A DNA stretch of 63,994 bases, filler included, from an uncultured bacterium (lineage in GTDB: Bacteria > CAYJOG01): assembly GCA_964371695.1 (NCBI GenBank). It is 8 parts of 8 records of this genome, joined end to end, with 100 filler letters (N's around TTAATTAATTAA, not from the genome) between each part and the next. Parts side by side here need not be neighbours in the genome. Positions count along the whole stretch, not along the records: positions 8,468 to 16,783 come from CAYJOG010000102.1; positions 16,884 to 25,182 come from CAYJOG010000103.1; positions 25,283 to 33,534 come from CAYJOG010000104.1; positions 33,635 to 41,861 come from CAYJOG010000105.1; positions 41,962 to 50,173 come from CAYJOG010000106.1; positions 50,274 to 58,342 come from CAYJOG010000108.1; positions 58,443 to 63,994 come from CAYJOG010000214.1; 1 more part is not named here. One strand, given 5' to 3'. Both the position numbers and the translations under genes were made by a program. The notes under the pieces are model-generated. The model saw only the letters and a list, made by a program, of their open reading frames with translations, did no database searches and was not told the DNA's origin. Shown here one piece after another: positions 11,575 through 63,994 of this stretch (the first letter of the stretch is position 1; each line of letters opens with the position of its first letter).

Positions 11575-11750
11575 AGAGGCCATGGATGGCCGTTTCCGCC
11601 GCCGTGTTCAGCACGGTCGGGAATGGGCGAAAAATTTTCATCGAAAGTAGCAGTTGAATATCAACCAGTTTTTGTGGGTCCGGCTGAACCGTGCGGCGTC
11701 GTTCGTAAGGTTTCACGGATGAAACCGACGAACCAGAAAATATAAGCTGG
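11575..11750 (+). repeat. Family A structured dispersed element, copy 1 (candidate ncRNA or MITE)
   Basis: GGCC-ATGGAT-GGCC hairpin, long stem, GTTCGT-AA-GGTTTC-ACGGAT-GAAACC-G-ACGAAC hairpin, CAGAAAATATAAGC tail. Confidence 0.9.
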
Positions 11751-11823
11751 GTGGGCGGTTTAATTTGTGCACAGAGTGCTCTCCCTGTCTACTTGAATAA
11801 GGTATTTGCTCTAGGATTCCCCC

Positions 11824-12642
11824 ATGAACACTCAAGGTGTGTTGTGTGTGGTGGCGCTGCCCCTGGGCAACCTGGGGGACATCACCGACCGGGCGCGGGA
11901 AACCCTCAAAAACGCCCAGGCCATTTACGCCGAAGACACCCGCTCGCTGCAAAAACTTTCTTCGCTGCTGGGGCTGGGCCTGAGTCACCCCAAAATCCAC
12001 AGCCTGGACACCCACCACGAGGCGCGCAAGACAGAGGAAATCATCCGCCGCGTGCTGGGCGGTGAACAGGTGGCCCTGGTGAGCGAGGCGGGTACGCCCG
12101 GCGTGAGCGACCCCGGCGCACGGGTGGTGGCGGCGGTGCGCAGCGCGGGCGGCCCCGTGGCGGCGGTGCCGGGGCCAAGCATTCTTTCTGCTGCCCTGAG
12201 CCTGTCGGGACACGAGGGGCCGGTGGTGTGGCTGGGTTTTGCACCGCGCAAGGGCAAAGAACTTTTGGACTTGGTGCAGGTTTATCCCCCCCAGGCGGCG
12301 CTGTTTTTTCTCGAAAGCCCCCGCCGCCTACGGGACACCCTCACGCTGCTGCATGACCATTTCGCCGACACACCGGTGCTGCTGTTCCACGAACTCACCA
12401 AACTGCATGAAGAAGTGCTGAGCGGCACGCCCGGCGAACTGTTGTTGCGGCTGGACGCCGAACCCAAAGGGGAGTGGGCGCTGATGCTGCTGCCCAGGGC
12501 CGTGCAGGGTGAAGACGCAGAAAAACTCACCCAGGCCCTTGCGCTGGTGCAGGCGCTGAAACAACACCTGCCCCCCAGCACCGCCGCCCGCGTGGCGGCC
12601 CAGGTGACGGGCGTGGCCAAAAACAAACTGTATGGGGTGTGA
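11824..12642 (+). CDS. rsmI: 16S rRNA (cytidine1402-2'-O)-methyltransferase
   Basis: PLGNLGDIT, AEDTR, VSEAGTPGVSDPG, ESPRR, ELTKLHEE. Confidence 0.93.
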   Translation: MNTQGVLCVVALPLGNLGDITDRARETLKNAQAIYAEDTRSLQKLSSLLGLGLSHPKIHSLDTHHEARKTEEIIRRVLGGEQVALVSEAGTPGVSDPGARVVAAVRSAGGPVAAVPGPSILSAALSLSGHEGPVVWLGFAPRKGKELLDLVQVYPPQAALFFLESPRRLRDTLTLLHDHFADTPVLLFHELTKLHEEVLSGTPGELLLRLDAEPKGEWALMLLPRAVQGEDAEKLTQALALVQALKQHLPPSTAARVAAQVTGVAKNKLYGV

Positions 12643-12696
12643 TGCCATTACCGTCAGGTTTGAGAGAAAAGTCGCGGATTATCAGGGGGTTTTTAA

Positions 12697-12837
12697 CGTA
12701 GCCCCGGCGTCTCGCCGGGAGTATTTGCCGCGCCAGAGGCGCACACCTTGCAGGATATTACAATTATTAGCCTGAAAAAAGCCTGTTTCACGCCGCCTTC
12801 GGCGTTTTTTTTCTCCCGGCGGGACGCCGGGGCTACA
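12697..12837. repeat. Inverted pair of GTAG-type REP palindromes
   Basis: GTAGCCCCGGCGTCTCGCCGGGA and TCCCGGCGGGACGCCGGGGCTAC. Confidence 0.75.
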
Positions 12838-12919
12838 AATAACACTGACAGCAATGGGGTGTGACCCCCGTGATGGACCATCTCATAAATGGCGAAGGCT
12901 TGGGTTGTAAACTCTCGCC

Positions 12920-13894: not shown

Positions 13895-13975
13895 GCGTTA
13901 TTTGGCCAAGTGGCGGTGACCAGGGGAATGGTGTACCATTCGGCTGCTAAAAGTCGCAACTTTTGTGATGAGAAT

Positions 13976-14049
<74 letters not shown>

Positions 14050-14052
14050 CCC

Positions 14053-14088
14053 AAAAAGCGGCCCCCCGAAGCGGGGGCGGCTTTTTTT
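14053..14088 (+). terminator. Intrinsic terminator after tRNA-Arg
   Basis: AAAAAGC-G-GCCCCC / GGGGGC-G-GC followed by T7. Confidence 0.8.
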
Positions 14089-14240
14089 GCCGACTTCCGA
14101 CCTCCAACTTCCTGTTTTTGATATCGGGATCGAGGATTTGAACATTGACAAGGGCCATTGAGGGCCATGTCCGAGCGCTTGCCACATCCACCAAGGCTTC
14201 TTAGCATCTCCCGCAGGGGTGGGCGTTTTCCCGCCGGGTC

Positions 14241-16615: not shown

Positions 16616-16699
16616 GGCAAAGCCACGCTTGATGCAGACAAATAATGCGTGGCCATTTTTGCCCTCTCCCTGAGAGCCTGTCATTACCCACAAGTCGGC

Positions 16700-16726
16700 G
16701 TCATTCCCGCGAAAGCGTGAATCCAG
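16700..16726 (+). repeat. GTCATTCCCGCGAAAGCGGGAATCCAG-type REP; other copies 55734-55760, 55857-55883 (inverted), 60443-60561 (degenerate pair)
   Basis: Recurrent ATTCCC-N8-GGGAAT palindrome. Confidence 0.8.
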
Positions 16727-16750
16727 GGGAATATAAAAAACCGCCTTATT

Positions 16751-16776: not shown

Positions 16777-16982
16777 TGGCCGCNNNNNNNNNNNNNNNNN
16801 NNNNNNNNNNNNNNNNNNNNNNNNNNNTTAATTAATTAANNNNNNNNNNNNNNNNNNNNNNNNNNNNNNNNNNNNNNNNNNNNGCCCGTGACCTCACTTG
16901 CGTTCGGTCACGGTCTGCCCTCTCCCTCAGGGAGAGGGAAAGGCCGGGCATCGCCCTTTGTCTACGTCAAATATGAATTGCT

Positions 16983-17252: not shown

Positions 17253-17264
17253 GGGTTTTCCTTT

Positions 17265-18092: not shown

Positions 18093-18098
18093 ATCGCC

Positions 18099-25181: not shown

Positions 25182-25282
25182 CNNNNNNNNNNNNNNNNNN
25201 NNNNNNNNNNNNNNNNNNNNNNNNNNTTAATTAATTAANNNNNNNNNNNNNNNNNNNNNNNNNNNNNNNNNNNNNNNNNNNN

Positions 25283-32043: not shown

Positions 32044-32222
32044 CCAGCTTATATTCTTCTGGTTCGCCGGTTTCATCCGTGAAACCTTGCGAACAACGCC
32101 GCACGGTTCAGGCTTCCCCTATAAGCTGGGAGCTGAGCATATCCAAAGGTTTCTATTCCGCTTTCCCCCTTTCCCCGCCCGTCCTGAACCGGCGGCGGAG
32201 CGGGCCATCCATGGCCCTTGGC
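32044..32222 (-). repeat. Family A structured element, copy 2
   Basis: Reverse complement carries both GGA-loop hairpins, the long stem and the tail. Confidence 0.9.
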
Positions 32223-32280
32223 TTCCTGGTTCCACGCTCCCTTCACTGAGTAGACTGTCAGACCCTTTTTTGCTTCCACC

Positions 32281-33534: not shown

Positions 33535-33634
33535 NNNNNNNNNNNNNNNNNNNNNNNNNNNNNNNNNNNNNNNNNNNNTTAATTAATTAANNNNNNNNNN
33601 NNNNNNNNNNNNNNNNNNNNNNNNNNNNNNNNNN

Positions 33635-34022: not shown

Positions 34023-34527
34023 TGAAGTTCGGAAATCAGCAGGGGAATTGCCACCCATTTTTCATTCAGTTTCAAAAAGTCTACATAAATGGTGCGGGGC
34101 TGGTCGTCTGGCTTGGGTTGCAGCTTGGTGAGTTTAAACCCGGCGGTGGCGCAGGGCGGCGGGGTACTCACCTGAGATTGGGGGGGCAGCATCTGGTTGA
34201 CCTTGCCGGTGGCGCAGAACTGCTGTGGCGGTGGCTCAAAGGTGCAGGCGCCCGTGTCGGCCAGTTGGGTGACCCACACGTTGTACCAGTCGGAATAGGC
34301 GGTTTCGCCCATGGTTTGCAGATGTTGTAGTGAAGTGGCGTCATAAAGGGGCACCAGGGCGCTGGCGTCTCTTGCCACGATGGTGTTGCAAAACTGGGTA
34401 AGGGTCTGGTCCAGGGCCGGGTCTTTGCCGCTGGATCGGCCGCTCAGCACCCTGGAGCGCATGAGGTACATGCCNNNNNNNNNNTCACCACCAAGCCAAT
34501 CAGGGTTTTACGGTCTTTGTCTTCCAT
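34019..34527 (-). CDS. Hypothetical membrane-anchored protein (spans a small N gap)
   Basis: MEDKDRKTLIGLVV... continues into MYLMRS...; ATGA coupling to the next gene. Confidence 0.6.
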
Positions 34528-34582
34528 GGGGCAGGCGGTAAAAAATCATCTTATCACCTGGGCGAGGCGTTTATTTTTGCGG

Positions 34583-34766
34583 AAAGCCTGTTTTAAAAGT
34601 GCGCGATGTGGAACATGGCGCACGATAAACAGGCTCTTGCGCTCATGGATGAGCGCATCCGAAAGCCGAAACTTTGAAGAAGTTGAGGTTTTCGCAATCA
34701 GGGCCGGGCTTTGCCCGGACCTGATTGGGTTTATAAAGTCCAGGAGGGACTTTATAAACAGGTTCT
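34583..34766 (+). mobile_element. Family B five-hairpin MITE-like element, copy 1
   Basis: Imperfect terminal IR AAAGCCTGTTTTAAAAGT / ACTTTATAAACAGGTTCT; same hairpin order as 38270-38448. Confidence 0.65.
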
Positions 34767-34812
34767 GAGATTGCAGATGACCTTTTGGCGTGGCGGTTTA
34801 TAATTCTTTCTC

Positions 34813-35076
34813 GTGGCCAAGGTTGTGATTTACACCACTGCGTACTGCCCCTATTGCGACATGGCCAAGGCCCTGCTCACGCGCAAACAGGCGGCTTATG
34901 AAAACGTGGACGTGAGCAACGACGCCGAAAAACGCGCCTGGCTGGCCCAGGTCACCGGCCAGCGCACCGTGCCGCAGATATTCATCAACGACAAACCCAT
35001 CGGCGGATTTGACGAACTTTCGGCCCTGCAGCGCACCGGCAAGCTGGACCCATTGCTGGCTGAGCCTGAGGTATAG
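34813..35076 (+). CDS. grxC: Glutaredoxin 3
   Basis: CPYC, RTVPQIFI, IGGFDEL. Confidence 0.95.
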   Translation: MAKVVIYTTAYCPYCDMAKALLTRKQAAYENVDVSNDAEKRAWLAQVTGQRTVPQIFINDKPIGGFDELSALQRTGKLDPLLAEPEV

Positions 35077-35127
35077 CCGTGGGCCAGCCAGGTGAACACA
35101 ACTTCTGGCTCCGGGGCGATATCCACG

Positions 35128-35310
35128 GCCAGAGGCCATGGATGGCCGTTTCCGCCGCCGCTCCAGCGTGGCCGGGGCTTATCCACAAGTCGGCATTGAA
35201 TCAAAAAATAACGGTTATCACTCACGCTGCTCTCAGGGTTGGGCTGGAGCGTGCGGCGTTGTTTGCAAGGTTTCATGGATGAAACCGGCGAACCAGAAGG
35301 TAAAAGCGGG
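35128..35310 (+). repeat. Family A structured element, copy 3
   Basis: Both GGA-loop hairpins; compensated stem CGCTCCAGC/GCTGGAGCG. Confidence 0.9.
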
Positions 35311-35378
35311 ATGGGGTTTTTATCTCCCGCGCCCAAGCCAGTGCTGTTCTAACCAATCAGAAAAATGGGGGTAAGGAA

Positions 35379-35948
35379 TTGGCGAACGAGGAAGTCCTTG
35401 GGTATTACCGGCCCCTTGGCCCGTGGGACGCGTGGTATCGCAAGCTGATCCTGCTTTTGGGGGTGGTGGTGTTGCTCGTGGTGTGTTTTGAAGTGCAAGA
35501 AAGCGGATTCAAGGGCAACAGCAAAAAGGTGATGTTTCTGCTCAAGGAAAACCCCATCACCGAAGACTGGTATGAAGACCACGACAACCTCAAAAAAACC
35601 CTGGCCCTTGGTCCCTCAGACCCCAACAGCGGCGAGCGCACGGTGTGGTATCTCGACCAAAGCGTGGTGCATTTGCGCGACACGCTGGAACTGATCAATG
35701 AATGGGACTTTGAGCACCATTACGGCCCGTTTGTGGCTGAGACAGACGAGGTTTTCCGCCGCCTGGAGTTTGCCCGCCAGCGGGTGAAATATCACTACGG
35801 CCTCAACGCCCAGACCATGGCAGAGGTGCAGGGGGCTGTAGAAAAACAGGAAAAACTCATGCGCCTGTTCATAGAGCGGGGCGGCGGTCAGGACCTGTTC
35901 TGGAACATGGTCAATTATTATTACCGGGGCAAGGGGCGGGGCCGATGA
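35379..35948 (+). CDS. Hypothetical membrane protein
   Basis: AAGGA RBS, TTG start, one TM helix, ATGA coupling to rhomboid. Confidence 0.7.
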   Translation: MANEEVLGYYRPLGPWDAWYRKLILLLGVVVLLVVCFEVQESGFKGNSKKVMFLLKENPITEDWYEDHDNLKKTLALGPSDPNSGERTVWYLDQSVVHLRDTLELINEWDFEHHYGPFVAETDEVFRRLEFARQRVKYHYGLNAQTMAEVQGAVEKQEKLMRLFIERGGGQDLFWNMVNYYYRGKGRGR

Positions 35949-36889
35949 ACCGTTTTGCGCTCAGGGTGTTTCCCACCCTCACGGTGGGGTTCATTGTGAT
36001 CAACGCGGTGATTTATTCGCTGCTCTGCCTGCCCCAGTTACACGAGATCACCTCGTGGACCTCCATGGTGGCGTTTGGTTATCTGAAGGGGGAGGAGTCC
36101 TTCACCTCGGCCATGACGGCCATGTTCATGCACGCCGACATCAATCACATCATCGGCAACATGATCTTTCTGCTCATTTTTGGCTGGGCGGTGGAAGACG
36201 ACCTGGGGCCGTTTGTTTTTCTGTCCTTTTACCTTTTCACCGGCCTCATGGCCTCGGTGGCGCACTCCCTGTTCGGTGTGCCGCCCAGCGAGGAGTTCAG
36301 CTTTTCGGTGGGGGCTTCTGGCGCGGTGATGGGTGTGGTGGGGGGCTATCTGGTGCTGATTCCGGGGGCGCGCATACAGTCCTTCAAACAAAACGGCTGT
36401 GTGTCGGTGTTCATCAGCCTGATTGTAGGGCTGATGGCGGCCAAGGCGATTTACAACGACATCAACGCGGTGCTGCATCCCCGCGAAGGCGCGGCGGTGG
36501 CCCACTGGGCGCACATCGGGGGATTCACCAGCGGGGCTTTTCTGGGGGTGTTGCTTCGTCCCCGTCTCAGAACCCACCGCGAGGTGGCCACCATTCGTGT
36601 GATGCCCAAAAGAAAAACCAACACCCTGCCTGATGCCGCCGAAGAGGGAGAAACCCCGCCGCCGGAAGAAGAAACGGTGTGGGTGAACTGGAACGCCGTG
36701 GCCCGCGTGGTGGCGGAGGGGGCCTTTCCGCCTCGGGTGGCGGCCCTGGCCCAGACCCAGGACCGCGAGTCGCAGGTGACGCTGCTGCAACAGATGCAGG
36801 CCCACCTGTTGCGTCAGGAAAAACCTGCTGAGGCCCAGCGGGTGGGGGGCCTTCTGCGCCTGCTGGGTGTGCGTTTGCCGGGTGTGTAG
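35945..36889 (+). CDS. Rhomboid intramembrane serine protease
   Basis: MFMHADINHIIGNM, GASG, AHWAHIGG. Confidence 0.92.
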   Translation: MNRFALRVFPTLTVGFIVINAVIYSLLCLPQLHEITSWTSMVAFGYLKGEESFTSAMTAMFMHADINHIIGNMIFLLIFGWAVEDDLGPFVFLSFYLFTGLMASVAHSLFGVPPSEEFSFSVGASGAVMGVVGGYLVLIPGARIQSFKQNGCVSVFISLIVGLMAAKAIYNDINAVLHPREGAAVAHWAHIGGFTSGAFLGVLLRPRLRTHREVATIRVMPKRKTNTLPDAAEEGETPPPEEETVWVNWNAVARVVAEGAFPPRVAALAQTQDRESQVTLLQQMQAHLLRQEKPAEAQRVGGLLRLLGVRLPGV

Positions 36890-36915
36890 CTTCCGTCCGT
36901 TATCATCCTCAGGCA

Positions 36916-38265: not shown

Positions 38266-38269
38266 TTTT

Positions 38270-38448
38270 GTCCCCCTTGAAAAACACAAAAAGGACAGGG
38301 AAAAGGGTTGCGTTTTTCAAGGGGGACGGGCATTCCTGGATGGAATGCAATTGAAAACCGAGCGAAGCGTAGGTTTTCGCCCGCAACCCGGAGGCTTTGC
38401 CGATGGGTTGCGGTGCCTGAAAAAGTCCAGGACGGACTTTTTCAAGGC
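38270..38448 (+). mobile_element. Family B five-hairpin MITE-like element, copy 2
   Basis: CCTTGAAAAA...TTTTTCAAGG ends; GCATTCC-TGGAT-GGAATGC; GAAAACC/GGTTTTC; TGAAAAAGTCC-AGGAC-GGACTTTTTCA. Confidence 0.65.
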
Positions 38449-38492
38449 CAAATAATTTTGTCTATGGCTTGTGCTGTTACAAGATGACCCCC

Positions 38493-39400
38493 ATGCGAAA
38501 ATTGTTCCTTCCCTTCACCCTTCTGTTTTCTCTGTGTGTCTCTGGTTTTGCCGTGGCGCGGGATGACCACGCCTCTCACCACGACGCCCCCGCGCCCGTG
38601 GAAATGCAGGGTGAAAACCAGAAGCAGCACGGCACGGCCCCGGCTCCCAGCCACGAGGCATTGCTCAAACCCAAAGTGGCGGTGGTGGTGCAGGAGATCA
38701 CCCTGAACGCCCCCCAGGGCACGGGCAAGCACCGGCTTTATGTGGCCATGCCCGAAAAACCCGTGGGCAAACTGCCCGCTGTGGTGCTGATTCACGAGTG
38801 GTGGGGGCTGAATGAAAACATCGAATCCATGGCCCGGTTGCTGGCGGGGGAGGGGTATCTGGTGGGGGCCATTGACGTGTACGGCAAACCTGCCACCAGA
38901 GACCCCGCCCAGGCCGCGCGTTTTTATGCCATGGCCACCGCCAAACAGGCGGCCACCACGGCGCTGGTGGAAAAAGCCGCCGACACCCTGCTGGCCATGC
39001 CCNNNNNNNNNNGGCAGCGGGCAGTCAGGTGGGGGTGATGGGTTGGTGTTTTGGCGGCAATCAAACCCTTCAGGCTGCCTCGCGTCTGCCCGCCAAAGTC
39101 AAGGCGGCGGTGGTTTATTACGGCATCCAGTTGCGCATCGAAAAAGAAATCAGCCCCATTCAGGCCCCCGTGTTGGGGTTGTATGGCGCAAAGGATTCCT
39201 TGATTCCAAAATCCAGCATCGAGTTCATGCACGGCGAACTGAAAAATAAAGGCGTGGCCACGGACTGGGTGATTTATGACGGGGCGGGCCATGCTTTTGC
39301 CAATCCCTCGGCGGGCAACGAAAAAAACTATCACCCTGCTTCGGCGGCAGATGCCTGGGTTCGCACGTTGGCCTGGCTGAACAAATATCTGAAAGGGTAA
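38493..39400 (+). CDS. Secreted dienelactone hydrolase family protein (spans N gap)
   Basis: Signal peptide, IHEWWGLN, GWCFGG, YDGAGHAFAN. Confidence 0.9.
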
Positions 39401-39845: not shown

Positions 39846-40020
39846 GCTTATATTTTCTGGTTCGCCGGTTTCATCCGTGAAACCTTACGAACGACGCCAC
39901 ACGGTTCAGTCCACCCCAAAAAATTGAACTTGTTCGCGGGGTATTTGGATTCAAAGAACGCCCTTGTTAAGCACCGACCGCTCCGAACCGGTGGCGGGAA
40001 CGGCCATCCATGGCCTCTGG
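39846..40020 (-). repeat. Family A structured element, copy 4
   Basis: Reverse complement carries both hairpins; compensated CGCCAC/GTGGCG. Confidence 0.9.
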
Positions 40021-40132
40021 ATTCGGGCGTTGCCGACTTTGGCAGTGAGCCCAAGTTGCTCTGGCGATGATCTGGTCGGAGGTTTTTAACCTGATTCCAG
40101 AACTCCGTTTTGTTTATGCTGGCGGTGGCTGA

Positions 40133-41263
40133 ATGAAAACGCTGTCACCTCAAATCGCCGCCCTGGCCCTGTCAGAGTTTTTTGCCATGGACGCCCATGT
40201 TGTGGCGGATGAAGTGCGCCAGTTGGGGGCGGCTGCATTTCTGGCGCAGGAACAGAAAGCGTTGTTGCGCCCCTGGCTGGAACTGAGCCGAAAGGGTGTG
40301 GCGGCCCAGCGTTGGTTGCAGGAGCGTGAGGGGTATGACCCGCGCCGCGAAACAGAGGCCATGGCCCGGTTGGGTATCCGGTGTCTGACAGTGAGCGAAG
40401 AAGGTTATCCGGTGGTGCTGAACGATCTGGATGACCCACCCCTTGCGCTTTTGTGGCGGGGTGAACTGCCGGACCCGGAGCAGTTGCACCTGGGTGTGGT
40501 GGGCAGCCGTCAGCCTGATCTTTATGGCCGCCGCCTGGCCGCTGAGGTGGGGAAGGGACTGGCCGAAAAAGGTGTGGGGGTGATCAGCGGCGGGGCGCTG
40601 GGGGTGGATTCCCTGGCCCACGAGGGGGCCATGTCGGCGGGGGGATACACCCTGGCGGTGCTGGGTCAGGGGCTGGCGCAAAAACTGAGTCACCGCCAGC
40701 AGGAACTGGTGGAGCAGATTGTCGCCAGCGGCGGTGGGGTGCTGAGTGAATACAGCCCTTTTACTGCGCCAGAGGCATTTCGTTTCCCTCACCGCAATCG
40801 CCTCATCAGCGGATTGTCGCAGGGCGTGGTGGTGGTGCAGGCTCGCAGCCGCAGCGGCACCAAAATCACTGTGCGCCACGCGCTGGATCAATCGCGAGAG
40901 GTGTTTGTTTTTCCCGGCAACATTTATTCAGAGCTTTCGCAGGGCTGCCATGAACTGATCCGCGATGGGGCGCGTCTGGTGGGGTCGGTGCAGGAACTGC
41001 TGATGGACAGCGGGGTGCTGGCGCTGTCGGTGAGTGACGCTCCCCTGCCACCGCCACCGCCCCTGTCGGGCCACAAACGCACGGTGTATCAGCGCCTGGA
41101 ACTGGAACCCCGCCACGTGGACGCCCTTTGTCTGGACACGGGCCTCTCGGCCCAACTGGTGGGCACGGCCCTGGTGATGCTGGAAATGGAGAACCTGGCG
41201 CAACAGACCCGCCCCGGTTTTTTCATGCGTCTGGCGGCTGCTTTGCCCCTCGAGGAAGGTTAA
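40133..41263 (+). CDS. dprA: DNA-processing protein DprA
   Basis: VVGSR, SGGALGVD, FPHRNRLISGLS, SGTKIT, C-terminal winged helix. Confidence 0.95.
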   Translation: MKTLSPQIAALALSEFFAMDAHVVADEVRQLGAAAFLAQEQKALLRPWLELSRKGVAAQRWLQEREGYDPRRETEAMARLGIRCLTVSEEGYPVVLNDLDDPPLALLWRGELPDPEQLHLGVVGSRQPDLYGRRLAAEVGKGLAEKGVGVISGGALGVDSLAHEGAMSAGGYTLAVLGQGLAQKLSHRQQELVEQIVASGGGVLSEYSPFTAPEAFRFPHRNRLISGLSQGVVVVQARSRSGTKITVRHALDQSREVFVFPGNIYSELSQGCHELIRDGARLVGSVQELLMDSGVLALSVSDAPLPPPPPLSGHKRTVYQRLELEPRHVDALCLDTGLSAQLVGTALVMLEMENLAQQTRPGFFMRLAAALPLEEG

Positions 41264-41798: not shown

Positions 41799-41861
41799 TA
41801 GAACCCATCTCAAAAGTCCGTCCTGGACTTTTGAGAACGCCGTGGGCGGGGAGTAGAAACC
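41799..41861 (-). mobile_element. Family B element, right-end fragment at scaffold edge
   Basis: Minus strand CTCAAAAGTCC-AGGAC-GGACTTTTGAG-ATGGGTTCT. Confidence 0.55.
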
Positions 41862-42090
41862 NNNNNNNNNNNNNNNNNNNNNNNNNNNNNNNNNNNNNNN
41901 NNNNNTTAATTAATTAANNNNNNNNNNNNNNNNNNNNNNNNNNNNNNNNNNNNNNNNNNNNGCGTTACGCACGGCGGTATCTCCCCTCTCCCCTTTACGG
42001 GGAGAGGATGCCCCGCAGGGGCAGGTGAGGGGTCAAACATAAACAAAAAACCAAACAAGATTTTTTGCAACCTCCGGCTTCCCTTCTGAT

Positions 42091-42537
42091 TCAAAGACCC
42101 GCCAGCCAGTTTTGGGCCTGCGCCAGCCAGTGTGGGGGCAGCGGCCCCGCCACCGGCGGCACGCCCAGCAGAAACACCCGGTTGGGCAGTGTGCCCAGTG
42201 CCTGGGCCAGTTCCAGCACCTGAGAGACACCCAGGCCGTGGCTGCTGGCGGGGCGCTCTGCCGCCAACAGGCCGGGCCGCCAGGGGGTGAACAGCGGCTC
42301 GGTGTTGGGTGTGTCCGGCGCAAGGCTGTCCACAATCACCAGGGTCTGACCCGGCGCGGCGGGTGACAGCGCCAGTTCCGGCGGCGGTGCGGGCCAATGC
42401 ACAAATCGGGCCTGGGGCAACAGGGGCCGCAGTGCCTCGAACAGTTCCAGACCCGGTGTGTCGTGGGGGTTCAGACGGTTCCCCACACCGGCGATCAGCA
42501 GATGTGGGCGGGGGGCCTGTTCTGCCACGCCGGTCAC
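42091..42537 (-). CDS. Hydrogenase maturation protease-like protein
   Basis: IAGVGNRL..HD..G, VIVDS, SSHGLG. Confidence 0.8.
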   Translation of the reverse strand: MTGVAEQAPRPHLLIAGVGNRLNPHDTPGLELFEALRPLLPQARFVHWPAPPPELALSPAAPGQTLVIVDSLAPDTPNTEPLFTPWRPGLLAAERPASSHGLGVSQVLELAQALGTLPNRVFLLGVPPVAGPLPPHWLAQAQNWLAGL

Positions 42538-44441
42538 AACCCCTGCCGTTGCGCCAACAACAACCGCACCCGCGCCAGATTTCCCTGCACTCCTTGGTAG
42601 AAATAGGGTGTGCCCTCTGGAGTGAGCACCTTCAGCGCATTTTCATAAGCCATTTCAGCTTGTTTCAATCGCACCGCGCCTTCTTCACGTTCACCCAAGG
42701 CTCTCAGGGCACTACCCAAGCTGTTTTGTGTCGTGGCCCATTGCAACGGAAAATCTTTTTGTGTGCGAACCTCAAGGGCTTTTTCAAAAGCTGTCACGGC
42801 CTGTTTCAGGCGCACCGTGCCTTTTTCCCTCTCACCCCATCGTAATAAGACGCCACCCAGGTTGTGTTGTGTCATGGCCCATTGCTGCGGCAAATCTTTT
42901 TGTGTGTAAACCGCCAAGACTTGCTCATAAACCGCAACTGCCTTTTTCAGTCGCACCGTGCCTTTTCCCCTCTCACCCCATCGCGTAAGGGCGGCACCCA
43001 GGTTGTTTTGTGTTGCAGCCCAGTCCAACGGCAAATCTTTTTTTGCGCGCACCACCAGTGCTTTTTTTAAAGCTCCCACGGCTTGTTTCAGACGCACCGT
43101 GCCCTCTTCACGCTCACCCAAAATACGCAAGGTGTTGCCCAGGTTGTTTTGTGTCGCGGCCCAGTCCAGCGGCAAATCTTTTTTTGTAAAAACGGTCAGT
43201 GCTTTTTCATAAGCCGTCACGGCCTGTTCCAGTCGCACCGTGTTTTCTTCACGCTCACCCCAAATACACAAGGCAATGCTCAGGTTGTTTTGTGTCGTGG
43301 CCCATTGCAATGGCCAATCTTTTTGTGTGCGGATCTCCAAGGCTCTTTCAAACGCCGCCACGGCTTGTTTCAGTCGTTCTGTGCCTTCTTCGCGCTCACC
43401 CAAAGTGCGCAAGGCAATGCCCAGGTTGTTTTGTATCCTGGCCCAGTCATCTGGCAAATCCTTTTGTGTATACACCGTCAATGCTTTTTCATAAGCGACC
43501 ACGGCCTGTTCCAGACGCAACGTGCCTTCTTCCCGTTCACCCCAAATGCGCAAGGCATTGCCCAGGTTGTTTTGAATCATGGCGGTGGTGTGTGGATCAG
43601 GACTTTTATCCAGCGCCCGGTTAAAAACCACCACTGCCTCTTTTAAGTGCTCAACACCCCCCTGCACTCCAGACAACGTGACCAGTGTGTTGGCCAGCAG
43701 ATACAGAAAATTTGCATCTTGCCCCCAGGGTGAACCAGTCTGTGACAGGTGGCGCACCGGCTCTAAAAATTGGTTGAGTTCCTGAGGCGGTTTTTTGCCC
43801 ACCTGTTTTGACCATACCGCTTCTTCAGCCATCACGGCCAGCAACACAATCTTGCGGAAATCTGCATTAAATTTCTCATTGACCTCCAAACGGCCCTGTT
43901 CGGCATTCAACCGGGGGAGGGGATATTTTCCATCCTGACGGTCACTTTGCGAGGTGAAAAAAAGTTGCAGCCATTGTCCCTGGCCCGTGCCCCCCACGCC
44001 CCCCCAAATCAGCAGCCGTGCCCCCGTTTTGAACAAATGCTTCTGCGCCCGCCCATGGCCCTGTTGCAGAACCTGTGTGTGGCTCTGGTTTTCTTTTTCG
44101 AAGGGAATGTGAATGTTCACCAGCCGCACGTCCACACCCTTCAAATCAGCCAACAGGTTTTTCAGGTCTTTGCGCATGCGCTTGTCTGTGTCGCCGTCCA
44201 GAAGGGCCAGATACACCGTGAAACGTGTGGTGTCCGCTTTGGGCAGACGCCATTCCTTCCATCTTGTAACCAACTGAGGCACGCCAGGTTTTGACTGAAT
44301 TACCTCCCACCACCACCAAAACGAACCAACACCCATCAAAAGCAAAACAAGCGCTGCCGACCAAGGGCCAACGGTGTGCCACAGCCATAACACAGTGTTA
44401 ACCGGCTCAGGGGGTGAAGGCGTTGGCCCCGAGGGTGACAT
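42534..44441 (-). CDS. Membrane-anchored TPR protein with about seven 47-aa repeats
   Basis: 141-bp tandem units GEREEGTxRLxQAV...WAxTQNNLG; N-terminal TM helix; visibly lower GC. Confidence 0.88.
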   Translation of the reverse strand: MSPSGPTPSPPEPVNTVLWLWHTVGPWSAALVLLLMGVGSFWWWWEVIQSKPGVPQLVTRWKEWRLPKADTTRFTVYLALLDGDTDKRMRKDLKNLLADLKGVDVRLVNIHIPFEKENQSHTQVLQQGHGRAQKHLFKTGARLLIWGGVGGTGQGQWLQLFFTSQSDRQDGKYPLPRLNAEQGRLEVNEKFNADFRKIVLLAVMAEEAVWSKQVGKKPPQELNQFLEPVRHLSQTGSPWGQDANFLYLLANTLVTLSGVQGGVEHLKEAVVVFNRALDKSPDPHTTAMIQNNLGNALRIWGEREEGTLRLEQAVVAYEKALTVYTQKDLPDDWARIQNNLGIALRTLGEREEGTERLKQAVAAFERALEIRTQKDWPLQWATTQNNLSIALCIWGEREENTVRLEQAVTAYEKALTVFTKKDLPLDWAATQNNLGNTLRILGEREEGTVRLKQAVGALKKALVVRAKKDLPLDWAATQNNLGAALTRWGERGKGTVRLKKAVAVYEQVLAVYTQKDLPQQWAMTQHNLGGVLLRWGEREKGTVRLKQAVTAFEKALEVRTQKDFPLQWATTQNSLGSALRALGEREEGAVRLKQAEMAYENALKVLTPEGTPYFYQGVQGNLARVRLLLAQRQGL

Positions 44442-44502
44442 GTTCACAGTATGCGGCAACAAAGAAAACACAAAAACCCGACATGGTGGAAAACCGCGCC
44501 CA

Positions 44503-45405
44503 TTACTGCCCAAACCGCCGGATGGCCTGGGACTTCCAGCGGGCGAAATCGGGCTGCCAACCTGAGCGGGTGGCTTCTTTTTCCAGATTGGATTTTGTGC
44601 CGTAGGCGGTGGCGTCGAAGGGGCGGAACTGAAGGCCCGTGAGTTTGAACAGCGGCGCAAGACGCCCGCCGTTCTGTTTCTCGTGCAGGCTCAGAAAAAA
44701 GTCCCGCGCTTCTTTTTTGAGGGCCGGGGGCACGTCGTGACGCACAAAGATGGGGGGGAAGGGAAAACGCTCCGCACCGCAGGCCACCTGCCGCAGTTTT
44801 TTGACCGCGCCGGGGTTGGTGGCCTTGAGGTGAAAATATTCCACCTCGCTGGCATAACCGGCGTTGGCCTGATTCAGCGAAATGGCCAGGAACACGCCAA
44901 ACAGCTCCTGCGTGGCTTTGACCTCGCTCAAAAAATCCTCTGGTTTTTGCCCCAGCAGGCGGCGCAGGCTGAAATAAGTGGAGCCATCGGGAATGATGAT
45001 GACCGTTTTGTTTTTCAGGTCTGCCGGTTTTTGAAAGGGGCTGCTTTTATCCACATAAAGACACAGCCGGGTGTGGGGCAGGTGATAAAGCGTCATGCTC
45101 ACCAGGGGGTCATAACCCTTGTACATGTCGTTGCTGGTGACAAAAAGAAACGGCGGGTTCTGGGCGGCGAGCGTCTGTTTGAAGTCCTGGGCGTTTTTGA
45201 ACACCACCGGCGTGACAGGGCGCTTGAGCCGCTGGGCGAACACCTGCAGGGTGTCGGTGACGATGGCCTTGAGCTGGGCGTTCTGGTTGCCCCCCAGCGA
45301 AAACCACAGGCCGAACTTGAGCGGCGGCGGCGCTGCGCTCAGGCGGGACACACCCAGGCCGAGGATTCCCAGCAACAACACAGTGGCGGCCCGGCGCAGT
45401 ATCAA
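44503..45405 (-). CDS. PhnD/SsuA-like periplasmic substrate-binding protein
   Basis: Signal peptide, YVDKSSPFQKPADLKNK, FPPIFVRHDVP; start uncertain. Confidence 0.7.
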   Translation of the reverse strand: MILRRAATVLLLGILGLGVSRLSAAPPPLKFGLWFSLGGNQNAQLKAIVTDTLQVFAQRLKRPVTPVVFKNAQDFKQTLAAQNPPFLFVTSNDMYKGYDPLVSMTLYHLPHTRLCLYVDKSSPFQKPADLKNKTVIIIPDGSTYFSLRRLLGQKPEDFLSEVKATQELFGVFLAISLNQANAGYASEVEYFHLKATNPGAVKKLRQVACGAERFPFPPIFVRHDVPPALKKEARDFFLSLHEKQNGGRLAPLFKLTGLQFRPFDATAYGTKSNLEKEATRSGWQPDFARWKSQAIRRFGQ

Positions 45406-47447: not shown

Positions 47448-47752
47448 GTTGAAGCCCCTCCCTGGGTAAAGCTCAGTTTAGCACATTTTTCGACCTTTGT
47501 GTAGACGGTTGACAGGTTTTAACCGCAAAAAAAGTGGCCCCGGGGAACACTGGGGCCAACTGGGGAGGTAAAAAAGGGCCAGCAGGATGGGGCTGGGGAT
47601 TTGTCGCCCTCTGCGCCAGCCGGACTAACCTGAATAGCAAAAACCGTGCCAAGGTTTGGCGCAAAAAAAGAGTTTCAATCAAAAAGGAGTTTTGATTGGG
47701 ACTCCTCGCAAACTCATGGATTTTCAGGGTGGTTTATCAACACCCTGCTAAT

Positions 47753-48085
47753 TCATGGCTCCTGCGGGGGCTGGTCTTCCTCCACCGTCACCTGCAACGG
47801 GTGGCCATATTGCCGGGCCAGACCCATCACCTGCAGGGCCTTGGTCTCGGCGATGTCTCGCGTGAAAACACCGGCCACCCCCACCCCCTGTTGATGCACC
47901 GCCAGCATCAGCGCCTCGGCGGCGGTGGAACTCAGGTGAAACACCCGCCTGAGCACCATCACCACAAACTCCATGGGTGTGAAGTCGTCGTTGTGAATCA
48001 GCACCTTGTAAAGCGGCGGACGTTTTGTCCGCGCCCTGGTGCGCTCTTTGACGGAAACGTTTTCTTGGGGGAGGCGTTGCGCCAT
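47753..48085 (-). CDS. clpS: ATP-dependent Clp protease adaptor ClpS
   Basis: YKVLIHNDDFTPMEFVV, MLAVHQQG, RDIAETK, HPL. Confidence 0.96.
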   Translation of the reverse strand: MAQRLPQENVSVKERTRARTKRPPLYKVLIHNDDFTPMEFVVMVLRRVFHLSSTAAEALMLAVHQQGVGVAGVFTRDIAETKALQVMGLARQYGHPLQVTVEEDQPPQEP

Positions 48086-50173: not shown

Positions 50174-50273
50174 NNNNNNNNNNNNNNNNNNNNNNNNNNN
50201 NNNNNNNNNNNNNNNNNTTAATTAATTAANNNNNNNNNNNNNNNNNNNNNNNNNNNNNNNNNNNNNNNNNNNN

Positions 50274-55582: not shown

Positions 55583-55970
55583 GCGAAAAACCGAAGAAGG
55601 AAGTTGGCGGTTGGACGTTGGAAAAAAAAGCCTCCAGCGTCCCCCGGCAAGCAGCCTCCCCGACCGCCGGGGGTAACCCCCAACCCGGGGGTCGGCCCAA
55701 AAAAAACAAAAAAAATTTTTTATNNNNNNNNNNGTCATTCCCGCGAAAGCGGGAATCCAGCCAAACAAAGACAAAAAACTTTTTCCTTTTAAAGGCGGGC
55801 GGGGACGCCCGCCCCACTGAAAGAAAACAGAAATAGGGGTGAGCCTTTTGGTTCAACTGGATTCCCGCTTTTGCGGGAATGACGGCAGAAGGCAACGCGG
55901 CTTTTTGCCTTTTCCAACATCCTGTCTCCATCTTCCATCGCCCGCCTCCCCTCTCCGCTAAACTTCACCC

Positions 55971-56588: not shown

Positions 56589-56615
56589 CTTCTAACGATG
56601 CTGGCAACACCCGCA

Positions 56616-56901
56616 GCCAGAGGCCATGGATGGCCGTTTCCGCCGCCGGGCGAGGCGGGTGTCCTGCCAGAGCACCAAAGTGCTCTGGCCCGCCGAGCGG
56701 GCATCCATGGAAGGATGCCCTGGGACCAACAGCCACGGAGGGCCAATCTTCCTATGGGCATTTCCAGCAATATATCGGCCACCCCGGCGCTGTCGCGCCG
56801 CTTGTCGCGCCCGGCAGCATCAATATGCTGCCGCTCCCCCAAAAGACCTCCCGCGACAATTGCAAGGTTTCATGGATGAAACCGGCGGACCAAATGTAAG
56901 C
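56616..56901 (+). repeat. Family A structured element, copy 5 (expanded interior)
   Basis: GCCAGAGGCCATGGATGGCCGTTTCCGCCGCC ... TGCAAGGTTTCATGGATGAAACCGGCG. Confidence 0.85.
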
Positions 56902-58342: not shown

Positions 58343-58442
58343 NNNNNNNNNNNNNNNNNNNNNNNNNNNNNNNNNNNNNNNNNNNNTTAATTAATTAANN
58401 NNNNNNNNNNNNNNNNNNNNNNNNNNNNNNNNNNNNNNNNNN

Positions 58443-59209: not shown

Positions 59210-59249
59210 GAAAGCGCATTGCTGAAAGAAAAGAGAGGTAACCCACGAC

Positions 59250-60227: not shown

Positions 60228-60290
60228 GCGGCCACTGAGTGTGGTGGTTGTTGGCCGGGTGGGTCTATCTCGTGAGCCATCCAGTGGGCA

Positions 60291-60397
60291 AGTGGTTCAT
60301 CTGATTTGAAATGAGTAGCAGCGATGGGGACATCGCTGCTTTATTGGTGCGGTGAGGACACCGCACCTACTCCTCATCTTGAGTCAGATGAACCACT
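60291..60397. repeat. Composite inverted-repeat element containing two GTAG-type REPs
   Basis: AGTGGTTCATCTGA / TCAGATGAACCACT flanking two short palindromes. Confidence 0.7.
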
Positions 60398-60655
60398 GGT
60401 CTGGTCTGAACTGAAGGGCGGCGTTCCTCTGGTCTTTTCGCCGTCATTCCCCAGGAAGTGGTACAGCAGTAGCCATGGGCGTCTCGCCTGTGGCCACTCG
60501 CGCCACCGGACCTGGTTTTTGCTTTTTGTCCTTACTGGACTGCCGCTTTCGCGGGAATGACGGCGGGGAACAATGGGGTCTTTTTCTTTTACCAACTTCC
60601 AGCTTCCACCTCCCCAGAGGGGAGCGGGAGCTGTCGGGGCCTTCTTCTTTTTGCC

Positions 60656-61588: not shown

Positions 61589-61662
61589 GGTGTGATTGTA
61601 ATGCAGGCTTTTGGCTTCCACCCCCCAACTTCCATCCGCCCAGGCTCTGATAGGATCTGGCC

Positions 61663-63720
61663 ATGTCCCGTTTCGGTTTGTTTTTTCGCCTTGGGTGGCT
61701 GGTGTGTTGGTGGGGTTTGGGTGTGCAGATGGCCCATGCTGACCTGCACCGTTTTGACGGGCCGCAACCCGGTGTGCAGGACCAATGGGTGAACCAGTCG
61801 CCGGACCCCTTCTCCTACACCCCGTTCGCCCCTTCGTTAAAGGCGCGCAAAAGGGCCTATCTTGAGTTCAGCGCCGGGCGCGAGAAGGGACTGATGGGGG
61901 CGCTGGCGCGTCTGAAGCTGGGTCAGCCGCCCATGGTGGACGACGCCGACCTCAAACGCCGCGTGGCCCATGTGAACACCCGCGTGGACACGGTGGATTT
62001 TGAAATGACCCGCCTGATGCTGGCGCTTTACATGGACAAAACCCACGCCCGCCGCCTGTTCACCCCCGCCCAGCGCGCCCTGGTAGAAAAAACCGTGCTG
62101 GATTTCAAATACTGGATCACCGAACCCGGCCCGGACACGATGATCACCTGGACAGAGAATCACATGATTCTCTTTCACAGTCTGGAATATCTCGCGGGGC
62201 AATATTTCCCCAATGCCACGTTCACCAACAACAGCAAGACAGGCCGCTGGCGCATGGCCCACGCCCGGCCTTACATCCTGCGGTGGATCAACCTGCGGGC
62301 GCGTTACGGTTTCAGCGAGTGGGACAGCAACGTGTATTACAACGAAGACATGCCCGCCCTGATGAACCTTGTCCTGTTCGCAGAAGACCCGAAAATCAAG
62401 ACCCTCGCCACCATGGCCGTGGACCTGATGTTTCTGGACATCACGCTGGATCATTTTCATGGCGTCTACGCCACCAGCCACGGCCGCACCTATGCCGAGC
62501 ACAACAAATGGCCCCTGCGCCACAGCATGGCCACGGTCTACAAAATCCTTTACGGCACCGGCCAGTTCATGAACAACGACCACTTCACCGGCACACCCCT
62601 CAGCCTGAGTGATTACGAACTGCCCCCCGCCATCGAGGCCATCGGTCAGGACAGCGCCGCCACTTTCTGGGGCCGCGAGGGCCAGGGCATTTCGCTGGAA
62701 GACGCCCTGGGGCCGCTGAAGTTCAACCCCGAAAACATTGATGATCTGGTGCATCTGTGGGCCTTTGGGGCCTACACGCAACCGGACACCATCCTGGCCA
62801 CACTCAACGCCGCCGACCGCTGGAATCTGTGGAAACATCCGTTTTTTGAAGACGCTGCCAAGGCCGCCCGCGACGTGCCTCGCGACAACCGCGTGAAGGG
62901 CATGTTGCGCACGGTGCTCATCGAAACCATGCGCACCCTGCTGGGCAGCGTGAACAAGGTGACTTTCCGCACCGCCGATTATCAGCTTTCCAGCGCACAG
63001 GATTATCGCAAGGGCGAGGCGGCCAACCAGCACTTTGTGTGGCAGGCGGCGCTCAAGCCCCACACCGTGGTGATGGTGAACAACCCCGGTGACCTGAGCG
63101 ACACAAAACGCGCCCCGGCTTATTGGATCAACGACAACCGCCTGCCCCGCACGGCCCAGTGGCGCAATGTGCTGGTGAGCCTTTACAACATTGGCAAAAA
63201 AGAACTGGCGGGCGAGCGGGGGCTTTATCTGTTCACCCACGCGTGGTTCCCGAAAAAGGATTTTGACGAAGTGCGCGACACCGGCCAGTGGACCTTTGGC
63301 CGCAAGGGCGACGCCTACATCGGCCTATACGCCAGCCAGCCCAAAACCTGGCTCACCGAAGGCCGCGAGAAAGACCGCGAGATTGTGGCCGAAGGCGACC
63401 GGGTGGTGTGGATAGCCCACTTGGGGCGCAAGGCCGAAGACGGGACGTTTGAGGAGTTCATGGCCAGGGTGAGCGCCGCCAGCGTGGTGGTGGGCGAGGC
63501 CCACGACACCGTGGCCTATGACGCGCCGGGTGTGGGCCGCCTCACGTTGGGCTGGAAGGAACCCTTCACGGTGGACGGTCAGGCCGTGCCCCTGTCGGGG
63601 TTCCCGCATTTCGACAATCCTTATGTGCTCAAGGCCAGGGGCGAGGCCAGTCTGCGACTCGAAAAAAACGGCCACGTGCTGGAGCTGGATTTTGAAAAGG
63701 CCCTGCGGGTGAAAAACTGA
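61663..63720 (+). CDS. Secreted hypothetical protein (heparinase II/III-like architecture possible)
   Basis: Signal peptide ending AHA; WTENH, GFSEWDSNVY, HGRTY; TAGGAT 6 nt before ATG. Confidence 0.7.
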   Translation: MSRFGLFFRLGWLVCWWGLGVQMAHADLHRFDGPQPGVQDQWVNQSPDPFSYTPFAPSLKARKRAYLEFSAGREKGLMGALARLKLGQPPMVDDADLKRRVAHVNTRVDTVDFEMTRLMLALYMDKTHARRLFTPAQRALVEKTVLDFKYWITEPGPDTMITWTENHMILFHSLEYLAGQYFPNATFTNNSKTGRWRMAHARPYILRWINLRARYGFSEWDSNVYYNEDMPALMNLVLFAEDPKIKTLATMAVDLMFLDITLDHFHGVYATSHGRTYAEHNKWPLRHSMATVYKILYGTGQFMNNDHFTGTPLSLSDYELPPAIEAIGQDSAATFWGREGQGISLEDALGPLKFNPENIDDLVHLWAFGAYTQPDTILATLNAADRWNLWKHPFFEDAAKAARDVPRDNRVKGMLRTVLIETMRTLLGSVNKVTFRTADYQLSSAQDYRKGEAANQHFVWQAALKPHTVVMVNNPGDLSDTKRAPAYWINDNRLPRTAQWRNVLVSLYNIGKKELAGERGLYLFTHAWFPKKDFDEVRDTGQWTFGRKGDAYIGLYASQPKTWLTEGREKDREIVAEGDRVVWIAHLGRKAEDGTFEEFMARVSAASVVVGEAHDTVAYDAPGVGRLTLGWKEPFTVDGQAVPLSGFPHFDNPYVLKARGEASLRLEKNGHVLELDFEKALRVKN

Positions 63721-63800
63721 CAAGGCCCATGAGGCGGATGCCCGCGTCAAGTTGCCCGCTCCCTCAGGGAGAGGGCAAAAAAACAGGCGCTTTCTGCGGG

Positions 63801-63994
63801 CGCGGCTTCGGTTCAAATCCTGTTTTTTTTGCCTGGTCGGGGTGACAGGATTTGGCCTTCTTGGCCTCGCCATCCTGGCTCGGCCAGCCGGGCCAGCCTG
63901 CGCCGCTTTCGGCCCATCCTGGGCCTCACCGCTTTGCGGACGCGGCTTCGGTTCAAATCCTGTTTTTTTTGCCTGGTCGGGGTGACAGGATTTG
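63801..63994 (-). repeat. tRNA-Pro 3'-end-linked direct repeat (54-bp identical copies, period 140)
   Basis: 63801-63854 = 63941-63994; minus strand CAAATCCTGTCACCCCGACCA at 63834-63854 and 63974-63994. Confidence 0.85.
63974..63994 (-). tRNA. Possible 3' end of a tRNA-Pro gene continuing beyond the window (or a further repeat unit)
   Basis: T-loop remainder + CCTGT + acceptor strand CACCCCG-A-CCA typical of tRNA-Pro. Confidence 0.5.

Follow-up and report, generated by a model that had tools for sequence, protein, structure and literature searches.

Hairpins with the trinucleotide GGA at the apex of the loop are frequent in the intergenic DNA of an uncultured bacterium (GTDB lineage Bacteria; CAYJOG01; GenBank assembly GCA_964371695.1). 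Here, we analysed these hairpins in a 63,994-nucleotide stretch of its sequence (further referred to as the window), which is made up of eight draft contigs, ordered by length and each about 8.2-8.4 kb long, i.e., of non-contiguous DNA joined by 100-nt N..TTAATTAATTAA..N linkers, as well as in the whole draft genome (3.43 Mb, 672 contigs, 61% G+C, 83% complete). We conclude that the GGA-tipped hairpins are probably modules of mobile intergenic repeats, in which the apex is kept by selection acting at the level of the element. In such a case, the hairpins would be copied along with the elements and would not be independently evolved sites of the host, the carriers being of three kinds: repetitive extragenic palindromes (REPs) with three REP-associated tyrosine transposase (RAYT) genes, a superfamily of miniature transposable elements with inverted repeats (MITEs) comprising families B, C and K, and an element named family A. 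A protein or nucleic-acid partner reading the folded single strand would have to matter to the element, and contact with the regulator CsrA would be a by-product, or something which the elements exploit, and not the function of a dedicated, regulated sponge. The carriers belong to known kinds (REP, MITE and TwoAYGGAY-like); what is new is the invariant GGA apex on covarying stems.

GGA loops and the repeats that carry them

In the initial annotation of the window it was claimed that unrelated repeat families converge on GGA-loop hairpins, which together might form a genome-distributed CsrA sponge. All hairpin sites named there exist, as their coordinates were read and they were listed as perfect hairpins, and in RNA minimum-free-energy folds the GGA was apical in 18 of the 20 stretches, the 5' arm being clipped in both misses. 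We used a general scan for perfect hairpins with a stem of at least 6 bp and GGA/TCC in the loop, and a strict, CsrA-like form with a stem of at least 5 bp closed by C-G and a loop A-N(0-1)-GGA-N, i.e., C[A(N)GGAN]G. Genes were called with a crude home-made caller (2846 genes, 84% coding). Between positions 11578 and 63925 of the window there are 26 GGA/TCC-loop hairpins, whereas 30 dinucleotide shuffles yielded 10.9 on average and never more than 18. The whole genome has 4187 intergenic hairpins (7.9 per kb vs 2.1 per kb in coding DNA), and 885 of them (21%) carry GGA/TCC in the loop. When the intergenic segments were shuffled ten times with dinucleotides preserved, 108.3 such hairpins remained on average and 120 at most; the real sequence has 873, an approximately 8-fold excess which bears out the predicted enrichment. 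GGA ranks first of the 32 strand-collapsed loop triplets, at 2.61 times the intergenic background. The strict form is represented by 366 intergenic hairpins, of which 245 have the apical hexaloop CANGGANG and 121 the pentaloop C[AGGAN]G; in this set GGA is the top of 64 triplets, followed by CCA with 131, and the most frequent loops are ATGGAT (123), ACGGAT (46), AGGAT (45), AGGAC (38) and AGGAG (31).

The excess of GGA loops belongs to the repeats, since hairpins outside repeats have GGA/TCC loops about as often as expected (63 of 595, i.e., 10.6%, vs about 8%). REPs alone make up 383 of the 859 GGA hairpins found in a relaxed scan. Single-linkage clustering was unusable for defining independent hairpin families, as 1838 of 2937 hairpins ended up in a single cluster, linked through nested and adjacent repeats. 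Where a strict hairpin has a neighbour within 250 nt, the two share a strand in 77 cases and are on opposite strands in 2, with a spacing of typically 80-100 nt, and same-strand clusters of strict hairpins contain one hairpin 222 times, two 60 times, three 4 times and four 3 times. The assertion that each element keeps its loops on one strand is thus correct for this canonical type, but not for REP doublets, which are inverted pairs.

Family B, with 219 nhmmer matches and full copies of about 183 nt, is a MITE of the DDE-transposon kind, since it has terminal inverted repeats (GAGCCTGTTT.../...AAACAGGYTC) and a target duplication of the form TNA. The 3-nt flanks were identical in 27 of 44 full copies (permutation mean 6.3, maximum 14 in 2000), and of the 26 copies with TNA on both sides, 22 had the same N. 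A 3-bp TNA duplication also occurs in the IS1031 group of the IS5 family of insertion sequences (ISfinder). Family B resembles IS5-derived MITEs in being about 180 nt long and non-coding, in its inverted repeats starting with GAG and its TNA duplication, in its intergenic location in both orientations and in nested insertions; Correia and ERIC elements may be compared as structured MITEs. The interior of family B contains four hairpins, of which hairpin 1 has an A-N-GGA-N loop and hairpin 4, about 97 nt away, an A(G/C)GAN loop. The loop of hairpin 1 reads NGGA in 108 of 112 copies, and one pair of its stem varies (CG 44, TA 39, AT 16, GC 10). In hairpin 4, AGGAN, TGGAG or CGGAG loops are present in roughly 62% of the copies and ACGAN in roughly 34%, and GGA occupies both loops in 70 of 114 copies. 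The statement that the loop is kept thus holds in part, the exceptions being hairpin 4 and the REPs with their AGA variants (described below).

The strongest new result, i.e., covarying stems with a constant GGA, was obtained with copies of family B in metagenomes. Scanning of metagenome contigs with a 21-mer of hairpin 4 gave 105 stretches, of which 80 were analysed. The family-B profile matched 79 of these 80, at a G+C content of 49-67%, and the copies had the same layout, including the inverted-repeat hairpin and TTAG-type flanks. Proteins encoded in the flanks matched those of the present genome at 16 of the 80 loci, with 30-65% identity; the neighbouring genes were ordinary, and no transposase was found in the 70 flank open reading frames (ORFs) scanned of 217. 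A GGA-loop hairpin was located upstream of hairpin 4 in 41 of the 59 metagenome copies with enough upstream sequence, mostly about 85 nt before it and on widely different stems. In an alignment of 24 metagenome copies and 2 window copies, no columns apart from those of the searched hairpin 4 were invariant except the GGA of hairpin 1, and all six pairs of hairpin 1 were doubly changed in a compensatory manner (e.g., GC 11, AU 9 and CG 2 at one pair). Since the GGA is invariant on covarying stems in unrelated copies, the loop is under selection; judging from this alignment, the selection is purifying and acts on the apex in different hosts, whatever the sequence of the stem. The four-hairpin interior with an invariant GGA apex kept across unrelated hosts is, apart from the autonomous partner not being found (see below), what distinguishes family B from IS5-derived MITEs.

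We also looked for family B hairpin 4 elsewhere: a 19-mer occurred in none of 400 other genomes, and a 13-mer was not found as a word in the literature. The DNA runs containing the present genome are labelled sediment metagenomes; for positions 34485-39002 of the window, no RNA run was found. With four of the DNA runs, reads from many copies piled up on the repeats or joined them to other copies, and a clean empty site was not found.

Families C and K are built in a similar way. Family C (40 copies, AATTCA-TGGA) has the four-hairpin layout of family B with other stems, and the K element, present in a cluster at 47.7 kb of the window, has an inverted-repeat hairpin and an AATCCA-TGGA hairpin; each of the families B, C and K carries one AYGGAU-type loop and one AGGAC-type loop. 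B-like modules are nested in the hairpin 2 loop of family C copies (contigs C177, C479, C536, C569, C577 and C599), so the elements target, or tolerate, one another's hairpin loops. Much of the common loop is accounted for by shared descent or machinery, given that B, C and K have a single architecture and the REP classes a single transposase system, and the convergence of unrelated families had been overstated.

The most abundant GGA hairpins genome-wide are REP classes. Hairpins of the classes GCGGTG-NGGA, CCGGCG-RGA, CAGGCR-RGA, CGGGCG-NGGA and GCGATG-RGGA are each followed by CTAC or CCAC, which is GTAG or GTGG on the other strand. An exact 16-mer REP pattern has 128 occurrences in the genome, and 100 listed places include at least 13 inverted pairs with a spacing of 51-59 nt; on any transcript of such a doublet, one hairpin reads GGA and the other TCC. 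The genome possesses three Y1_Tnp genes, one of which is an NCBIfam REP_Tyr_transpos at 80 bits, reaching the cut-off, and each of the three is flanked by one REP hairpin class. The tagged GGA/AGA hairpins are thus the known REP/REPIN-RAYT system: they are short GTAG/GTGG-tagged palindromes in hundreds of extragenic copies and in inverted doublets, and the RAYT genes stand beside their own, cognate REP class. REPs, however, explain only part of the GGA hairpins. Their loop is NGGA in 123 of 136 hairpins of the GCGGTG class, GGA in 72 and AGA in 59 of the CCGGCG class, and AGA in 52 and GGA in 25 of the CAGGCA class. To our knowledge, an (N)GGA/AGA loop common to several REP classes is not a feature of described REPs.

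Family A is an element of about 172 nt with three stem-loops (SL), found in 41 complete copies, 37 of which are 158-175 nt long. In the consensus fold of these 37 copies, SL1 is GGCCA[UGGA]UGGCC, SL2 is long with a variable tip and a covarying base, and SL3 is GUUCGC..GGUUUC[ACGGAU]GAAACC..GCGAAC with covarying pairs; AYGGAU loops cap the first and the third stem. Throughout the conserved blocks, identity is about 90% or more at every position, so the GGA does not stand out by its conservation in this genome. A 26-mer of SL3 gave no match in the metagenome contigs. The 5-bp GGCCA hairpins, when taken alone, are no more stable than shuffles (z from -0.45 to -0.95).

CsrA and other possible readers of the apex

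Few post-transcriptional regulators are as widespread as CsrA. Its gene lies outside the window, and the initial annotation had made its proposal dependent on finding csrA and fliW in the genome. Both are present: fliW (157 aa), csrA (89 aa) and flagellin genes are adjacent on contig C181, in the classical order. The CsrA is canonical, with its conserved core kept, and is most similar to B. subtilis and Geobacillus structures; the best relative of FliW elsewhere is 38% identical. The 400-nt flagellin leader beside csrA (1637-2037) has AACGGAC in an apical loop, and its ribosome-binding site is rich in GGA. Two 494-nt spacers on the same contig (2866-3359 and 4137-4630) are among the most A(N)GGA-dense of the genome, with 10-11 motifs each, and we read them as leaders of further flagellin copies.

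Forms of CsrA site given in the literature are RUACARGGAUGU, CAGGA(U/A/C)G, the ANGGAN hexaloop and CANGGANG; the CANGGANG hexaloop and the C[AGGAN]G pentaloop are listed as high-affinity CsrA/RsmE sites (PMC7652899, PMC4894983). SELEX (systematic ligand evolution by exponential enrichment) ligands of CsrA have stems of mostly no more than 4 contiguous bp (PMC7652899). The hairpins found here have GGA in the apical loop, in the ANGGAN or CANGGANG form, as high-affinity sites do; their stems are not short, with 5-13 perfect bp. As far as form is concerned, families A, B, C and K have loops that are textbook CsrA sites. Given loops of this type and a canonical CsrA, sense transcripts of the B-type and A elements are likely to bind the organism's CsrA in vitro. 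For transcribed sense copies in vivo, we would put the prospect of CsrA binding at about even.

The closest known analogue of these repeats is TwoAYGGAY (RF01731; Weinberg 2010), described as an RNA of two hairpins with AYGGAY terminal loops, which has been proposed to bind CsrA/Rsm on the basis of motif matching, i.e., as a prediction only (PMC4333381). In Pseudomonas it is reported at a median of 11-23 and up to 202 copies per genome, in doublets and at a fixed position beside REP arrays (bioRxiv 10.64898/2026.09.22.753630). The likeness is that of a multi-copy, structured intergenic element associated with REP arrays, and family A also has two hairpins with AYGGAU loops. Membership of the TwoAYGGAY family was rejected: the best RF01731 score was 21.5 bits vs a gathering score of 43, with 4 weak matches in the whole genome. 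In family A the long SL2 comes between the two loops, which are not adjacent on a common basal stem; family B differs in its inverted repeats and its target duplication, absent from the TwoAYGGAY descriptions available to us; and the host is a deep-branching FliW-type lineage, not a member of Pseudomonadota or Bacillota. The relation is hence one of looking or working alike, not of membership. In a literature search we found no report linking CsrA with REPs or MITEs, the part on REPs being judged on titles and abstracts.

Several points weigh against selection at the level of the element as the explanation of the GGA apex. Convincing inverted repeats or a target duplication were not found in family A. 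Neither an autonomous insertion sequence with family-B ends nor an IS4/IS5-type DDE domain (DDE_Tnp_1, DDE_Tnp_1_2) was found in the 83%-complete draft. Moreover, we know of no need for internal hairpins in a DDE-type MITE, so the term element-level selection names no mechanism. Mismatched pairs gave no consistent answer as to which strand folds: on the GGA strand of family A, G.U stood at 34 vs 4 A.C cells, and in the metagenome alignment the ratio was about 9:8. Counted by copies, G.T vs A.C mismatches were 39:3 and 80:36; counted by distinct variants they were 7:3 (canonical) and 10:20 (REP), neither being significant. Finally, the crude gene caller makes the orientation counts given below approximate.

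The apex could alternatively be a feature of DNA, read on folded single strands by HUH/Y1 transposases such as the three RAYTs, in which case the carriers would have, or have had, a common machinery and CsrA would be irrelevant. This fits the REPs, as each RAYT gene (one of them identified by NCBIfam) is flanked by a GGA/AGA-loop REP class, and it would explain why the elements are randomly oriented relative to genes. The ends of IS200/IS605-type elements are laid out with subterminal hairpins on the same strand, and so are the conserved hairpins of families A and B. For family B, however, the fit is poor, since inverted repeats with a TNA duplication are a DDE signature and not that of Y1/HUH enzymes, and no IS200/IS605 TnpB was found in the genome. 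The fixed place of Pseudomonas TwoAYGGAY beside REP arrays, reported in the preprint cited above, also speaks for a reader of DNA. REP loops accept AGA about as often as GGA, which argues against it. The published determinants of REP recognition by RAYTs known to us are the GTAG tag and irregularities of the stem. Overall, we regard a DNA-level reader as an unlikely explanation for the apex.

The sponge or regulatory layer suggested in the initial annotation would be encoded by the repeats, distributed over the genome and maintained by the host, with transcribed copies titrating CsrA or placing neighbouring genes under its control. RNA antagonists of CsrA are established mainly in Gammaproteobacteria, and lineages of the FliW type are thought to use a protein antagonist and flagellin mRNA. 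In FliW systems CsrA reportedly acts at near-stoichiometric levels (Oshiro 2019), which would count against a sponge. Supply of sites would not be the difficulty, with 366 canonical intergenic hairpins, paired on the same strand of an element (77 vs 2), in a genome with a fliW-csrA-flagellin locus and a canonical CsrA. There is a precedent in a FliW lineage, where the flaA mRNA of C. jejuni titrates CsrA (PMC4894983), besides the prediction made for TwoAYGGAY (PMC4333381).

The orientation of the hairpins, however, is near random. Between co-directional genes, family A is sense in 17 and antisense in 11 cases, family B in 43 and 38, and all GGA hairpins in 189 and 177 (p=0.57). The strict set shows 107 sense and 68 antisense hairpins, and a weak sense bias in favour of a sponge is left when same-strand clusters are counted (78:55, p=0.056). 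Strict hairpins are also over-represented in divergent, promoter-bearing spacers (49 vs 22 in convergent ones, at a base-pair ratio of 1.5:1), but only 9 of 171 have a start codon on the same strand within 40 nt. An sRNA-like unit is lacking: no U-run indicative of a terminator follows the 3' hairpins of A or B (promoters were not scanned), and no CsrB-like dense GGA locus was found, the densest A(N)GGA intergenic regions being flagellin leaders and ordinary spacers. Rfam gave nothing at the gathering score in the window and has no family for A or B; at permissive thresholds, matches were at chance level, except for one metagenome copy (L128, 382-464, minus strand) with a sub-threshold match to the gyrA RNA motif (RF01740; 34.8 bits vs 45, E 6.5e-6). 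The RsmY model scored 18.6 bits on a metagenome copy vs a gathering score of 57.

With Csr/Rsm small RNAs (sRNAs; CsrB, CsrC and RsmX/Y/Z) and the C. jejuni flaA leader the elements share GGA in apical loops and the CAGGA(U/A/C)G or CANGGANG form. Such sRNAs carry 9-22 sites, about 5-22 GGA motifs in a short transcript being the range which defines the class, whereas the elements described here have 2 each (4 in one composite copy), are dispersed and mobile, match no Rfam model and have no discrete, terminated sRNA gene. Their stems are very stable, in contrast to those of most SELEX ligands, several families have AGA or CGA in the loop as often as GGA, and the copies are mobile insertions beside unrelated genes. 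A host-maintained CsrA sponge is thus quite unlikely. That selfish elements recruit CsrA, the alternative put forward in the initial annotation, may still hold.

A role at the RNA level without CsrA was also considered, in which the hairpins would serve as ribosome-binding decoys or stabilisers, as sites of RNase processing or protection, or as transcript punctuation limiting the harm of insertion. GGA is the core of the Shine-Dalgarno sequence and many of the loops are AGGAG, AGGAC or GGGA, but the commonest ones, AUGGAU and ACGGAU, are poor Shine-Dalgarno matches and exact CsrA-type hexaloops. Hairpin 4 consists of an A-tract, a stem and a U-tract, like a weak bidirectional terminator, although a U-run after the hairpins is absent. 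The largest REP class is six times commoner in convergent than in divergent spacers (31 vs 5), as would be expected of 3'-end elements. We find this explanation very unlikely. A chance or compositional artefact of a GC-rich, palindrome-rich genome can practically be dismissed, because the modest stability of GGCCA hairpins and the near-expected loops of unique hairpins are outweighed by the 8-fold excess over shuffles, the first rank of GGA in both triplet comparisons and its invariance on covarying stems of independent metagenome copies.

It is conceivable, although we consider it doubtful, that a cross-phylum class of mobile elements (B/C/K, A and TwoAYGGAY-like) keeps CsrA hairpins because it works through CsrA. 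If this were so, transposition would continually seed new CsrA sites across the transcriptome, and in FliW-type lineages without Csr sRNAs the transcribed copies together would buffer free CsrA, as a mobile, genome-distributed arm of the Csr system. Should the repeats bind CsrA, transposable elements would be a general route to rewire or buffer the Csr regulon, and repeats of the TwoAYGGAY type, for long unexplained, would gain a function. Should they not, the invariant apex would point to an element-encoded or host factor which reads folded single strands, and such a factor would be new for DDE-type MITEs.

Copies in the window and additional observations

Five copies of family A are present in the window. 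Copy 1 (11569..11741, plus strand, 172 nt) was delimited by paired nhmmer blocks, hairpins and folds, with SL1 GGCCA[TGGA]TGGCC at 11578-11591 and SL3 GGTTTCA[CGGA]TGAAACC at 11709-11726. A minus-strand copy at 32056..32224 has its hairpins at 32202-32217 and 32069-32086, and the plus-strand copy at 35126..35298, which was also folded, at 35134-35147 and 35269-35286. The copy at 39852..40023 on the minus strand (hairpins 40002-40015 and 39867-39884) is antisense to the neighbouring dprA (40133-41263, plus strand). Copy 5 (56614..56894, plus strand; hairpins 56622-56635 and 56866-56883) is interrupted in its middle by about 110 nt of other repeat material, and the insert contributes an extra hairpin, GGGCATCC[ATGGAA]GGATGCCC, at 56699-56720. 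Genes beside the window copies are unrelated, encoding an RsmI-like methylase, a glutaredoxin, an isochorismatase and DprA.

Family B is represented by a MITE copy of about 183 nt at 34584..34765 (plus strand). It starts with the 5' inverted-repeat hairpin, followed by hairpin 1 (34638-34657, with TGGA within ATGGAT at 34645), two variable hairpins and hairpin 4 (34729-34759, AGGAG at 34742). A variant at 38273..38449 (plus strand) has TTGAAAAA-type inverted repeats, as in the metagenome copies, with hairpin 1 at 38330-38348 (TGGAT, 38337) and hairpin 4 at 38418-38444 (AGGAC, 38429). On either side of it lies one unit of a perfect direct repeat of 13 nt, AAATAATTTTGTC (38260-38272 and 38450-38462), which greatly exceeds the 3-nt duplication seen in the main subfamily. 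A 3' fragment on the minus strand (41808..41861), at a contig end, retains hairpin 4 with an AGGAC loop (41808-41836).

The cluster at 47533..47760 (plus strand) comprises a AGGATGGG hairpin at 47579-47596, which is weak (z -0.4), and an AGGAG hairpin at 47676-47698 (z -4.0). It also includes a truncated K element on the minus strand (about 47716-47752), complete copies of which carry AATCCA[TGGA]TGGATT. A low-copy 140-nt tandem repeat at 63795..63994 (minus strand) has two CAGGATG hairpins on that strand (63853-63887 and 63911-63925). It contains a fragment resembling a tRNA 3' end (GGTTCAAATCC.. and complement); no intact tRNA was called at this position, and the contig stops inside the repeat.

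The following REPs of the window were recorded on the plus strand. At 12815..12831 the hairpin CCCGGCG[GGA]CGCCGGG is followed by GCTAC (GTAG on the other strand), and its cognate RAYT is on contig C53. The REP at 55794..55813, GGCGGGCG[GGGA]CGCCCGCC, is followed by CCAC and is of a class which also flanks the RAYT gene on contig C29. Two adjacent REPs at 60317..60367 are AGCAGCGATG[GGGA]CATCGCTGCT and GGTGCGGTG[AGGA]CACCGCACC, followed by TAC. A REP-like hairpin, CGGCGACG[GGAA]CGTCGCCG followed by CTAC, is located at 8539..8558, outside the range covered by the initial annotation. On contig C29, long G8-11..C8-11 hairpins (3136-3238) adjoin the RAYT gene, and hairpins with a GGGGGG stem are the most numerous intergenic stem type of the genome (439).

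The linkers occupy positions 8368-8467, 16784-16883, 25183-25282, 33535-33634, 41862-41961, 50174-50273 and 58343-58442, with a spacing of about 8.3 kb. As the contigs are concatenated, gene neighbourhood across linkers is meaningless. A 21-copy repeat family (D1) reported by the repeat finder turned out to be the joining linkers and was rejected as a biological repeat.

Another abundant intergenic repeat, without a GGA loop, has the form ATTCCCGC-GAAA/CTTC-GCGGGAAT followed by TGACGG; it is present at 55843-55936 and 60521-60614, and its stem type has 163 intergenic copies. Its ATTCCC-N8-GGGAAT form is that of the Neisseria dRS3 repeats. Within coding DNA, a 708-aa ORF on the minus strand (42534-44660) contains six tandem 141-nt units (42626-43630) which are 64-74% identical and would give a 47-residue protein repeat.

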